Shown piece by piece: positions 6,105 through 39,580 of a stretch of DNA of 64,000 bases. The stretch's first letter is position 1; each line of letters begins with the position of its first letter. Source of the stretch: a virus. A program made the translations under genes and the position numbers. The notes beneath the pieces are model-generated. The model was given only the letters and a program-made list of their open reading frames with translations. It was not told where the DNA came from and ran no database searches. Location of the stretch: positions 1-64,000 of the IMG/VR virus record IMGVR_UViG_3300025108_004281. One strand, given 5' to 3'.

Positions 6105-6159
6105 CTCCTACCTTTTTAATTTATACAACTATTATACTAAAAATGGCACTTATGGTCAA
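6105..6159 (-). promoter_or_regulatory. Early sigma70-type promoter (TTGACC-17-TATAAT) with GTAGGAG leader
   Basis: -35 6154-6159, -10 6131-6136, GTAGGAG 6105-6111. Confidence 0.85.
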
Positions 6160-7050: not shown

Positions 7051-7105
7051 CTCCTACCTTTTTAATTTATACAACTATTATACTAAAATAATGGGTCGAG
7101 GTCAA
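7051..7105 (-). promoter_or_regulatory. Early promoter TTGACC-17-TATAAT with GTAGGAG leader
   Basis: -35 7100-7105, -10 7077-7082, GTAGGAG 7051-7057. Confidence 0.85.
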
Positions 7106-10328: not shown

Positions 10329-10385
10329 CTCCTACTCAACTACTTAATATACTATAATTATACTAAAAATAAGGGGTAAAGTCAA
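10329..10385 (-). promoter_or_regulatory. Early promoter TTGACT-17-TATAAT with GTAGGAG leader
   Basis: -35 10380-10385, -10 10357-10362, GTAGGAG 10329-10335, only 2 nt from ATG. Confidence 0.8.
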
Positions 10386-11462: not shown

Positions 11463-11784
11463 GTGTAGTATTTACTACAACTGACTCAATACTGCCTATA
11501 TTATCTGGTTTTTTACTAGGTGCTCTTGCTAACTCTATGAATGTGAGCATGTCGCCTGTATGCTCAAAGTAAATTCTCCATATGTTATCACTACCAAGTG
11601 TAGACATATGAAGTAGACCTTGCCCGTGCTCATCGAAGTGCGACACTAAATCAAATATAGTGTCGTCTTCCATTGTATTAGAATAAATGCAAATTTTGTT
11701 TTTCATTAGGTTCTCATAGGTTAGAGTACCTTTTAAACCTTCTAGTTCACCTACACCTAATTTTTTACTTACGTGAATCTTCAT
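11449..11784 (-). CDS. Hypothetical protein
   Basis: ORF track, coupled overlaps on both sides. Confidence 0.55.
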   Translation of the reverse strand: MKIHVSKKLGVGELEGLKGTLTYENLMKNKICIYSNTMEDDTIFDLVSHFDEHGQGLLHMSTLGSDNIWRIYFEHTGDMLTFIELARAPSKKPDNIGSIESVVVNTTHDAE

Positions 11785-13007
11785 GCTTTATACTTCACTG
11801 ATACGCCATATGGTGCTTCTGGAGTTCTACCACCGTAGCCAGAGCCATGAATAATAAACAATGTATCACAGTAGTCTTCATCACCCCAACTACCCCATGG
11901 GTAACCATCTGTGAATACAATTAACTTCTGCGGAACAATGTCTTCTTCTTTGAGTCGATCAAACATACAATCAAACTCAGTACCACCACCGCCTTCAATT
12001 TCAATGTCATAAATGTCATCAACGTTAGTTGAATCAAACTCATGAATTGTGTATGTAGATGTATCAAAGAAACAAAGTCTAAGTTTAAAGTTAGTGTATT
12101 GCTCCATGCAACCTTTTACTTCGCTTAGAAGGTCTCTTAGCATTTCATCTGACATAGAACCGGAACTATCAATAAAGCAGAACACATCTAAGTCTGTGTC
12201 GTAGTCCATACCTGGTAAGTATACTCTTTCAGCAATACCTTTTCTAGCAGGTCTCATAAATGTAAAATCATTCTTTACAACACTTTGAATATTAGTTGCA
12301 AGTAACTCTCTCCAGTCTAACTCAGGGTTAGTAAGATCTTTAATCATCTTCCTAACACCATTAGGAAGATCTTTATTACCAGCACCTTTGGCCGCATTCA
12401 TTACTGCTTCTTTAACTTCGTCGTTGATCTGCTGTCTTTCTTCCTTAGAATATGCTGGTGGGCCATCTTGCTTATCACCACCATCTACATTACCTTGTGC
12501 ACCTTGACCATCGCCATCTTCCTCGCTATAGTCCAAATGCATATCAAGTGTTTCTTGGGTAACATGCTCAGCATTTTCATACAAGTCATCATAGATCTCA
12601 TCTGAAATCCAGTTCTGATATTTGTAATCAAAACAAATATTAACTTTGGTAATTCTCTTACCAATGTTGTTTTCTACTAAGTCCATATTCACAACATAGT
12701 CATTTGCTATGTTCCAAAGACGAGGATCTCTGTTACCACGTCTGTCCATATGGTCATAAACATTATGTAGAACTTCGTGGCCCATCAAAAAGATCAGTTC
12801 GTCATCATCTAACGAATTGATAAACTCAGTATTATAAAAAAAGTATCTGCCATCTGTTGCGGCAGTTGGGCACCAACTTGATGCTTCTTGTAATTGTAAC
12901 CTAGTTGCTAAGTTACCAAAGAAACCATTCTTAAGAAGCAGTTGCACTCTAGCAGTAATTAATCTGTCCTTTACTGCTTGATCTGTATTTTGTGCTAAAT
13001 TGTTCAT
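11781..13007 (-). CDS. DUF2201-type metallopeptidase + VWA domain protein
   Basis: TAATDG, HEVLH zinc motif, WNIANDY, MIDAS DSSGS, GGGGTEF, VFTDG. Confidence 0.85.
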   Translation of the reverse strand: MNNLAQNTDQAVKDRLITARVQLLLKNGFFGNLATRLQLQEASSWCPTAATDGRYFFYNTEFINSLDDDELIFLMGHEVLHNVYDHMDRRGNRDPRLWNIANDYVVNMDLVENNIGKRITKVNICFDYKYQNWISDEIYDDLYENAEHVTQETLDMHLDYSEEDGDGQGAQGNVDGGDKQDGPPAYSKEERQQINDEVKEAVMNAAKGAGNKDLPNGVRKMIKDLTNPELDWRELLATNIQSVVKNDFTFMRPARKGIAERVYLPGMDYDTDLDVFCFIDSSGSMSDEMLRDLLSEVKGCMEQYTNFKLRLCFFDTSTYTIHEFDSTNVDDIYDIEIEGGGGTEFDCMFDRLKEEDIVPQKLIVFTDGYPWGSWGDEDYCDTLFIIHGSGYGGRTPEAPYGVSVKYKA

Positions 13008-13015
13008 TGTGTGTT

Positions 13016-13064
13016 CTCCTACAAACTATACTTATATTATACTAAAAATTACCTGGGAGGTCAA
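13016..13064 (-). promoter_or_regulatory. Early promoter TTGACC-17-TATAAT with GTAGGAG leader
   Basis: -35 13059-13064, -10 13036-13041, TTGTAGGAG 13016-13024. Confidence 0.85.
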
Positions 13065-13078
13065 CCTATTATTTGGAT

Positions 13079-13110
13079 AAAAAGGATGGGGGGACCTTGT
13101 AGATCCCCCC
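13079..13110 (-). terminator. Intrinsic terminator after AAA ATPase gene
   Basis: GGGGGGAUC-UACAA-GGUCCCCCC stem then AUCCUUUUU; G-U pair favours the minus strand. Confidence 0.75.
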
Positions 13111-13165
13111 TTAGTCTGTGCCGCTTAGTGTAGGTTGTAGGAGTAACTGGCGACACAGAGACTAA
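13111..13165 (-). ncRNA. Putative 3'-UTR stem-loop sRNA with anti-RBS loop
   Basis: UUAGUCU(CU)GUGUCGC / GCGGCACAGACUAA stem; loop CAGUUACUCCUACAACCUACACUAA is complementary to GTAGGAG leaders. Confidence 0.55.
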
Positions 13166-14245
13166 CTAGTCGATGTTCATGTATTTGCCGTATCGATCAA
13201 CCCACTCATCAATACGTTTTACGTCTGCAAAGTCAACATCAATGTCATACTCGCTCAATGCAATTTTACAGCCTAATACACACATCTCAGGTTCGAAGTT
13301 GTCCATTAAGAAGTTAATGAAGTTATTGAAAGCCTCTGTGAGTTCTTTCTCTTCACCATTGTCTTGAATGTTCTTCAACTCATAACTCATACCAACTGTA
13401 AGAGCATACTTAGAAGATATCTCAAGTTTCTTCAACTCCTTGACCTTACCTGAAAGGATTTCAGATGGCTTAGGAAGTTTAGAAGCATTCTTCTTATGGT
13501 TCATAAACTTGATTGCCATACCTTCACCAACCAAACCAGTTACAATGTCCATTTCCTCTTCATGAGTCATGTCACTGTCTTCTAGCATTTGGCTAACGAA
13601 TGCCCAAGACCTAGGAGTAGCAAAACTCCTGCTTGAACTCTTTGGATCAAAGTCAAAAAGGTCTTGTTTAGCAAAAGCCAAGTAACCAACAACATCTGGG
13701 TTGATGTCATTATCAACTGCCCAAGACTGCCAATCGTCATGATTAACTTCAACTTCTAAGTGAAGGAATCTGTTTGCTAAAGGACTTGGCATCCTGTAAG
13801 TAACACCTTTATCAGTGTCTCTATTACCAGCCGCCGCAATTACCACGTTATCTGGTAATACATATTGTCCAACCCTACGGTTAAGGATCAACTGGTAAGC
13901 AGTTGCCTGCACACTTGGAGGTGCAGAGTTAAGTTCGTCTAAGAACAAGAAGACAGTTTCATACTGACTAGCAAGTTCTTCTGATGGTAGTTCGGCAGGT
14001 GCCGCCCACATCATTTTGTTAGTGTCCTCATCTCTGTAAGGATACCCTTTGATATCTGTTGGGTCTAGCAAAGCCATTCTCAAATCAATTAAAAGGTTGT
14101 TACCTTCTTCAGCGATCTGAGCCAGTACGTCGGACTTACCAACTCCTGGAGGACCCCAAATGAATACAGGACGTTTTTTAGAGAAAGCACGTTTGATGTG
14201 GTTCTTTGCCCTGCTTAGTTTTACTGTTCGAATGTTATCTGACAT
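13166..14245 (-). CDS. MoxR-like AAA+ ATPase
   Basis: Walker A GPPGVGKS, Walker B LFLDE, AAGNR, PLANRF; adjacent to VWA gene. Confidence 0.9.
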   Translation of the reverse strand: MSDNIRTVKLSRAKNHIKRAFSKKRPVFIWGPPGVGKSDVLAQIAEEGNNLLIDLRMALLDPTDIKGYPYRDEDTNKMMWAAPAELPSEELASQYETVFLFLDELNSAPPSVQATAYQLILNRRVGQYVLPDNVVIAAAGNRDTDKGVTYRMPSPLANRFLHLEVEVNHDDWQSWAVDNDINPDVVGYLAFAKQDLFDFDPKSSSRSFATPRSWAFVSQMLEDSDMTHEEEMDIVTGLVGEGMAIKFMNHKKNASKLPKPSEILSGKVKELKKLEISSKYALTVGMSYELKNIQDNGEEKELTEAFNNFINFLMDNFEPEMCVLGCKIALSEYDIDVDFADVKRIDEWVDRYGKYMNID

Positions 14246-14249
14246 ATAA

Positions 14250-14309
14250 TTACTCCTACGAAATTATTTAATATGTATATATTATACTAAAAAACCTGAC
14301 CTAGGTCAA
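14250..14309 (-). promoter_or_regulatory. Early promoter TTGACC-17-TATAAT with GTAGGAGTAA leader
   Basis: -35 14304-14309, -10 14281-14286, motif 14250-14259. Confidence 0.85.
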
Positions 14310-14502
14310 CCTTTTCTTTCTTATTTTTTAAATTAAAAGTTAATTCAACCAAGTAGCCTAATGCTTGTAACTCATCTAACCTAAGGAAAACGTCACTATC
14401 AGAATAAGTTTTAGGGTCAGATATCCAATTATGTTTACCTGCCCTAGCACTAAATTTATCTAAGTAACGGATTTTATAATCCAAAGATTCGACGTATTCC
14501 AT
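14287..14502 (-). CDS. Hypothetical protein
   Basis: ORF track; TAATG coupling. Confidence 0.45.
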   Translation of the reverse strand: MEYVESLDYKIRYLDKFSARAGKHNWISDPKTYSDSDVFLRLDELQALGYLVELTFNLKNKKEKVDLGQVF

Positions 14503-14977: not shown

Positions 14978-15034
14978 CTCCTACCTTTTTACAAATTATG
15001 CATATATTATACTAAATTTTGGGGTACTGGTCAA
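14978..15034 (-). promoter_or_regulatory. Early promoter TTGACC-17-TATAAT with GTAGGAG leader
   Basis: -35 15029-15034, -10 15006-15011, GTAGGAG 14978-14984. Confidence 0.85.
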
Positions 15035-39517: not shown

Positions 39518-39580
39518 CTCCTACCGTCTGTTTTTGCTAAATTATGTATATATTATAGCAAATTCTAGGGTCGAGGTCAA
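39518..39580 (-). promoter_or_regulatory. Early promoter TTGACC-17-TATAAT with GTAGGAG leader
   Basis: -35 39575-39580, -10 39552-39557, GTAGGAG 39518-39524. Confidence 0.85.

Follow-up and report, generated by a model that had tools for sequence, protein, structure and literature searches.

Why should an uncultured marine phage keep an elaborate stem-loop behind the gene for a MoxR-like AAA+ ATPase, and upon what would such a structure act? The stretch of DNA analysed here (the window) is the first 64 kb of one 92,049-bp contig, 36% G+C, on which almost every gene lies on the minus strand. The genome encodes a T4-family PolB; judged by ATPase and PolB protein, its closest isolates are distant jumbo phages (41–51% identity), a nucleotide search of isolated phages returned one short unrelated match only, and its close relatives are all IMG/VR viral contigs. 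The ATPase gene (13166..14245, minus strand; an ORF of 359 aa with a Pfam AAA_5 match) is preceded by a promoter, TTGACC-N17-TATAAT (14309-14281), which together with the leader occupies 14246..14309. Its partner, a DUF2201_N metallopeptidase-like and VWA-like gene (11781..13007, minus strand; Pfam PF13203 and PF09967), follows after a 158-nt gap that houses the hairpin, so that the hairpin forms the 3′UTR of the ATPase gene. The VWA promoter, again TTGACC-N17-TATAAT (13064-13036), and the VWA leader UAUAGUUUGUAGGAGAACACACAAUG (together 13008..13064, minus strand) come directly after the terminator that closes this 3′UTR. A 40-aa GTG ORF antisense to the intergenic region (13011-13133, plus strand) has no support and is probably spurious.

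On the minus strand, the minimum-free-energy fold of the RNA from 13070-13170 contains a stem-loop at 13111..13165, with its 5′ arm at 13165-13150, its loop at 13149-13125 and its 3′ arm at 13124-13111. The stem comprises 14 bp, of which one is U-G (13153/13121), and is broken by a 2-nt bulge (13158-13157); the fold energy of the region (−36 kcal/mol, z = −4.9) was equalled by none of 200 shuffles. A 14-bp minus-strand stem with a single G-U pair, followed by an intrinsic terminator, had been reported in the preliminary description of this locus, and RNA folding reproduced it to the base: the terminator (13079..13110, minus strand), recognised both by fold and by consensus scan, has the makeup expected of an intrinsic one, with a 10-bp G+C-rich stem (13110-13088) holding 7 G-C pairs, a 3-nt loop and UUUUU. 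The 25-nt hairpin loop, CAGUUACUCCUACAACCUACACUAA, is almost free of G and contains an 18-nt core, GUUACUCCUACAACCUAC (13130..13147, minus strand), which recurs exactly in other viral contigs and is the proposed anti-leader, or anti-Shine-Dalgarno (anti-SD), segment. When 12000-14500 of the window was compared with Rfam 15, which includes C4 antisense RNA and known sRNAs, the element was unmatched even at E ≤ 10, and four loci from the two other lineages described below gave no match at gathering score. The hairpin is thus a conserved RNA motif that is new relative to Rfam 15 and widespread in uncultured marine phages.

When viral sequences were searched for the ATPase protein and for the loop core, the element turned up in more than 60 marine viral contigs, obtained from North Sea, Tara-type and estuarine samples, in about 50 distinct versions. 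These fall into three lineages, and the loop core, GUUACUCC(C)UAC, is kept even between ATPases that are only 52% identical; the exact 18-nt core is present in 13 viral contigs of two lineages that are separated by this distance. Lineage A consists of the window and 11 contigs whose ATPases are 90–99% identical; among them the loop core is invariant, the terminator loop and promoter spacer vary, and in two members the G-U pair has shifted within the stem. In lineage B, where the ATPase and VWA proteins are 52–53% identical to those of the window, the stems and terminators are wholly different and the core, GUUACUCCUACAACCUA, is the same. In some lineage B members (L052/L053:4120-4150; L056-L058:4110-4165) the 5′ half of the loop is interrupted by an additional small hairpin, which varies, and the core remains single-stranded. 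In lineage C the loop reads CCUACCUAU-GUUACUCCCUACCUA, the latter being a variant of the core, and is borne on at least a dozen unrelated stems. Because the 18-nt core remains identical at 52–53% protein identity while stems, terminator loops and promoter spacers are scrambled, we conclude that the loop is under selection.

The helix is likewise maintained. The core lay inside a hairpin loop in 25 of 25 variants folded, and among 22 distinct lineage C sequences all nine stem pairs show compensatory changes, with 91% of cells able to pair as compared to 30–55% in slid controls; in a smaller set, eight of the nine stem pairs have changes on both sides. These counts were made on covariance-model alignments, since a cross-lineage MAFFT alignment misaligned the 3′ arms. 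The two lineage C covariance models (R1 and R2) fail to detect lineages A and B, and no single model joins the three, so their unity rests on the shared core, position and architecture. Both stem covariation and loop conservation, for which the preliminary description had advised looking in relatives, are therefore present, and the hairpin is not a product of chance but a conserved structured RNA with a covarying helix.

The position of the element is as constant as its loop. In all 27 loci with upstream sequence it starts 20–45 nt past the end of the ATPase homologue, and although the downstream gene varies between lineages, this placement does not. The hairpin is followed at once by a terminator, both in the window and in all relatives; the terminator's sequence changes from one relative to the next, and its presence, together with the G-U pairs, fixes the strand. 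Readings at the level of DNA, such as an inverted repeat serving inversion or a double-stranded operator, were rejected on the grounds that the stems covary with G-U pairs of the transcribed strand and that the orientation is the same in every contig. In cellular genomes the lineage C core had no matches and the 17-mer of lineages A and B had five, none of them in a hairpin or terminator context, for which reason we read these five as chance. A second occurrence of GTTACTCCTACAA in L044/L045 falls within a coding region and was likewise attributed to chance. In one sublineage (L061-L064, L075 and L077) the stop codon of the ATPase gene lies within a small hairpin, GCCUAAGGGAGAGGC, about 25–45 nt upstream of the element (e.g., L062:4096-4125). 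This small hairpin has an SD-like loop, AAGGGAG, which complements CUCCCU of the large loop, and it could be a built-in competitor or an alternative pairing partner.

If the loop is selected, with what might it interact? Its reverse complement is UAGGUUG-UAGGAGUAAC. The preliminary description had noted a 10-nt match to the ATPase leader and a 9-nt match to the VWA leader; both are real and longer than first reported. The ATPase match (predicted target GUAGGAGUAAUU at 14259-14248) extends to 12 bp with one G-U pair, at −17.5 kcal/mol and z = −5.2 against shuffled loops, and the VWA match (predicted target UAUAGUUUGUAGGAG at 13030-13016) covers 14 of 16 positions, with a duplex energy of −17.8 to −20.6 kcal/mol (the latter with 30-nt windows) and z = −4.0 against shuffled loops. 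In the window itself the VWA leader is the best predicted target: a duplex scan of the whole 92-kb genome ranked it third, and the ATPase leader about twentieth, among the sites on that strand. The VWA leader is invariant in the 11 lineage A relatives despite a varying promoter spacer. The ATPase gene thus has, in its 3′UTR, an anti-SD motif that complements the SD region of its own mRNA, as icaR has in Staphylococcus aureus.

Both leaders belong to a larger set. GTAGGAG occurs on the minus strand at 6105, 7051, 10329, 13016, 14253, 14978 and 39518, that is, at all seven sites first listed for it, each behind a near-consensus promoter of a single type, (G)GTTGACY-N17-TATAAT; the copy at 10329 is separated from its ATG by 2 nt, as had been observed. 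Further copies are found elsewhere in the 92-kb genome, at 77867, 70839 and 70886. As had been suspected, the motif is nearly specific to early leaders: in the window genome it is present at 8 of about 12 GGAG-bearing promoter-proximal early leaders as compared to 1–3 of about 36 other sites, and genes outside the promoter-proximal early set mostly use AAGGAG or AUAGGAG. The early-promoter cassettes (6131-6159, 7077-7105, 10357-10385, 13036-13064, 14281-14309, 15006-15034 and 39552-39580) each combine (G)GTTGACY-N17-TATAAT, an ATATRYATA-like initial transcribed sequence and GUAGGAG, often with a terminator just upstream, and we take them to resemble the promoter-early-stem-loop cassettes of T4-type phages. 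The ribosome-binding sites at 6105 (6105..6111, minus strand), 7051, 10329, 14978 and 39518 pair with the loop at z −1.4 to −3.0 and would be weaker targets in trans. Early leaders other than those of the ATPase and VWA genes are in general graded in their fit to the loop (z about 0 to −3.5), so that complementarity is strong for these two and a few others and weak or absent for many.

The relatives bear out the same relationship with different letters. Throughout lineages A and B, the ribosome-binding site of the ATPase leader is formed by an invariant (C)GUAGGAGUAAU, which would make 11–12 bp with the loop, and lineage C leaders have GGAGUAAC, a perfect 8-mer complement of the loop. Transcripts of lineages B and C start with AUAGGUUGA or AUAGGUUAA, the complement of the 3′ part of the loop; since the loop complements both the start of the leader and the SD block, a single loop can pair with both leader ends in these two lineages, with 8–25 nt looped out. 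Across 30 loop-ATPase leader pairs from 30 lineages, the mean duplex energy was −17.4 kcal/mol and the mean z was −4.1 against composition-matched shuffled loops; non-cognate pairs averaged −15.9 kcal/mol, a difference reached in 0 of 20000 permutations, in a test that is inflated by relatedness. Changes in the loop are in several cases matched in the leader: UACCUAC faces GUAGGUA in L188, UACCUAA faces UUAGGUA in L110, and in L088 and L152 an altered 5′ loop segment, ACCUACCUU, fits the SD block AAGGUAGGU. Locus by locus, the promoter-proximal early leader that best fits the loop is almost always that of the ATPase gene, followed by that of VWA or another downstream gene. Against pairing must be set the ATPase leaders of L010 and L011, which have a U-to-C change (GUAGGAGCAAU) without a compensating change in the loop, and the fact that duplexes of −15 to −20 kcal/mol are not rare genome-wide. 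CUCC-type words in sense transcripts were not depleted below the expectation from composition. Judged from the window genome alone, loop-leader pairing is suggestive; once the comparative data are added, we find it convincing as a prediction.

A further line of evidence comes from ATPase homologues, at 43–57% identity, that do not have this hairpin. For these we compared the ATPase leader with the stretch at or just past the ATPase stop, looking for perfect complements. In L020, leader AGGAGCGCAA and 3′ segment UUGCGCUCCU share 10 nt, a length found in 0 of 426 control windows; in L023, GGAGCGCAA and UUGCGCUCC share 9 nt (0 of 425 control windows at least as long), in L036, AGGAGCAAC and GUUGCUCCU also share 9 nt (4 of 425), and in L021, AGGAGCAA and UUGCUCCU share 8 nt (20 of 425). 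In L017-19 the match is of 9–11 nt, between a leader core of GAGUUAGGC and a 3′ core of GCCUAACUC that overlaps the stop codon (0–4 control windows), and in L025-27 it is of 9 nt, between leader UCCACAACA and UGUUGUGGA in the terminator hairpin (3–8 control windows). In three hairpin-less clades the 5′UTR of the ATPase gene thus complements its 3′UTR over 9–11 nt, by means of different sequences, and a GC indel that separates L020/L023 from L021/L036 is matched in both UTRs. Significant 5′–3′ complementarity was absent from L013-16, L037, L038 and L029. Because several clades without the hairpin keep the complementarity, the recurring feature would seem to be 5′–3′ UTR pairing of the ATPase gene, of which the hairpin in the window is the most elaborate predicted form.

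Taking these observations together, we favour an anti-leader 3′UTR element that gives feedback on the ATPase-VWA module in the manner of S. aureus icaR, a reading to which we give about an even chance of being correct. Under such a mechanism, the variable stem would present a loop of about 25 nt, poor in G, immediately before the intrinsic terminator of the transcript. The loop would pair with the SD region of the ATPase's own leader and with the VWA partner's leader; in many lineages it would additionally engage a UAGGU block at the start of the ATPase leader. Pairing would occlude the ribosome-binding site and so limit translation of the module, as negative feedback or dosage control, and would probably also affect mRNA stability. 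Of the interpretation put forward in the preliminary description, the anti-SD pairing role is the best supported part, because the stem covaries around a conserved loop and GUAGGAG is nearly specific for promoter-proximal early leaders; the silencing of a whole class of early genes is not supported as stated, given that the match is strongest for the ATPase and VWA leaders and graded for the others, and that two of the best-matched sites, 70839 and 70886, stand behind late-type promoters. From the demonstrated structure, conservation, fixed position and complementarity of the element, we infer that pairing takes place in vivo and is repressive, whether in cis, between mRNAs or by way of a processed RNA of about 85 nt. 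Action within the full-length mRNA appears at least as likely as action by a 3′UTR-derived sRNA, because the clades without the hairpin keep their 5′UTR–3′UTR complementarity within the same gene. Binding of a CsrA-type protein to the leaders was considered and dropped, as most UAGGU blocks have no GGA core.

Alternatively, one could envision a stable 3′UTR-derived sRNA of about 85 nt that accumulates early and, working in trans, shuts off translation from every leader with GUAGGAG or GGAGUAAC in the switch to late expression. The near-confinement of GUAGGAG to promoter-proximal early leaders would accord with such a regulon, as would the repetition of the 8-mer complement GGAGUAAC at several early leaders in lineage C, the invariance of the loop while its targets vary (as for the seed of a many-target regulator) and the terminator common to element and mRNA, which is usual in 3′UTR-derived sRNAs, candidates for which are known from virulent phages (PMC10914365). 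However, for many early leaders the loop is no better a partner than its shuffled versions (z 0 to −2). The sites at 70839 and 70886, which hold the best contiguous matches of the whole genome, stand behind late-type promoters, and in the hairpin-less clades the complementarity is to the gene's own leader only. Nor is an internal promoter or processing signal visible (by eye, the last 60 nt of the ATPase gene hold no sigma-70-like promoter), and GUAGGAG itself could simply come along with duplicated promoter-leader cassettes. We regard regulon-wide action as unlikely. It is to a similar degree doubtful that the element is an RNA mimic of the ribosomal anti-SD, with flanks (GUA...UAAC) matching the phage's own early leaders, whose accumulating 3′ hairpin would titrate those leaders away from ribosomes, as an early-to-late timer made of RNA alone in a widely distributed clade of uncultured marine phages. 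A further variant, no more probable, is a closed-loop mRNA, where the pairing of 3′UTR and SD would be melted by the terminating ribosome, which would then be passed on to the start site of the same gene.

The loop could instead be a binding site or decoy for a phage or host RNA-binding protein that recognises CCUAC repeats, its complementarity to leaders being secondary. Two to three such repeats are present in the loop of every lineage, a stem displaying a single-stranded loop is a common protein-binding form, and no single predicted RNA target is as well conserved as the loop, a pattern compatible with a protein site as well. Such a site leaves unexplained why unrelated 3′UTR sequences in other clades complement their own leaders and why loop and leader change in compensation; the near-absence of G is what would be expected of a partner of purine-rich ribosome-binding sites, and the analysis yielded no candidate protein. 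We therefore consider a protein site distinctly improbable. The same matched changes bear on the view that the hairpin is a mere 3′-end stabiliser or processing site and the complementarity a relic of an inverted, partial copy of a promoter-leader cassette. The intergenic regions are indeed built of repeated terminator and early-promoter cassettes, and the reverse complement of the loop resembles a leader with an internal deletion. However, a relic would neither stay identical over 18 nt when the flanking proteins have fallen to 52% identity nor change in step with the leaders, and a stabiliser requires a stem, not a conserved loop, making this account very unlikely.

Post-transcriptional control in lytic phages has been little explored, and almost nothing is known of it for uncultured marine phages. 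Anti-SD sequences in apical loops are a feature of the C-rich-loop regulators of Firmicutes, such as RsaE/RoxS and the hairpins of RNAIII, and phages P1 and P7 have a c4 antisense RNA that pairs, through two loop segments, with two regions around a ribosome-binding site on a transcript of the same operon. The element described here is like these in its anti-SD apical loop and differs from them in sequence, structure and location; Rfam holds those families, and the element matched none of them. T4 RegB is a protein endoribonuclease aimed at the GGAG SD sequences of early mRNAs. The phage element, in contrast, is an RNA that would act by pairing, and the analogy is valid only if the regulon-wide reading is right.

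It had been suggested that nothing equivalent to this arrangement has been described, but pairing in icaR (PMC3868564), intra-mRNA anti-SD sequences (PMC12697547) and 3′UTR-derived sRNAs are close precedents. In S. aureus icaR, an anti-SD-like motif in the 3′UTR represses the gene's own ribosome-binding site by 5′–3′ UTR pairing (PMC3868564), and the hbs mRNA of Bacillus subtilis is a related case (PMC5737220). As in icaR, a pyrimidine-rich anti-SD motif in the phage 3′UTR complements the SD of the same mRNA, and lower translation and altered decay would be expected. Unlike icaR, to which it has no sequence relationship, the element serves a phage gene and places the motif in the large loop of a covarying hairpin adjoining the terminator; its predicted pairing is often bipartite, with a 5′-end block and an SD block, and also fits the leader of the neighbouring gene. 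More generally, far-downstream anti-SD-like sequences in B. subtilis mRNAs pair with ribosome-binding sites, hindering initiation and favouring decay (Gill et al. 2025, PMC12697547). The phage loop resembles these in being an anti-SD-like pyrimidine stretch hundreds of nucleotides from the ribosome-binding site; whereas they are depleted by selection, the phage element is conserved and structurally exposed, which implies purposeful use. With 3′UTR-derived sRNAs (NarS, PMC7038943; phage candidates, PMC10914365) it has in common a terminator shared with the parental mRNA and a conserved single-stranded segment complementary to translation-initiation regions. It differs from NarS-type sRNAs in that its seed lies in a hairpin loop and its best predicted target is the parental mRNA.

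The element is a concrete and widespread case with good covariation support. It suggests that the two UTRs in this phage gene module have co-evolved towards pairing, an arrangement that several clades reach with different sequences. If pairing does occur, control by 3′UTR anti-SD sequences, known from a few bacterial mRNAs, would extend to viruses, and the element would constitute a compact, portable part for translational feedback. It would also offer a handle on the role and dosage sensitivity of the MoxR-like ATPase/VWA pair, which many large phages carry.

Two observations on the same contig past the window concern further matches to the loop or motif. At 70836-70900, a palindromic late-promoter-like sequence, TTATTTATCGATAAATA, lies between two divergent leaders, both GUAGGAGUAAUU, which are the longest contiguous complements of the loop in the genome (12–13 bp); a 33-aa hydrophobic peptide (MVTELVPYSF...) is encoded behind the plus-strand leader, and a 271-aa ORF stands behind the minus-strand one. 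Sequences resembling tRNA (T-arm GGTTCGAGTCC), at about 85570-85600 and 77383-77420 (minus and plus strand), appeared among the top duplex matches and as a GTAGGAG match, and the phage thus appears to carry tRNA genes outside the window.
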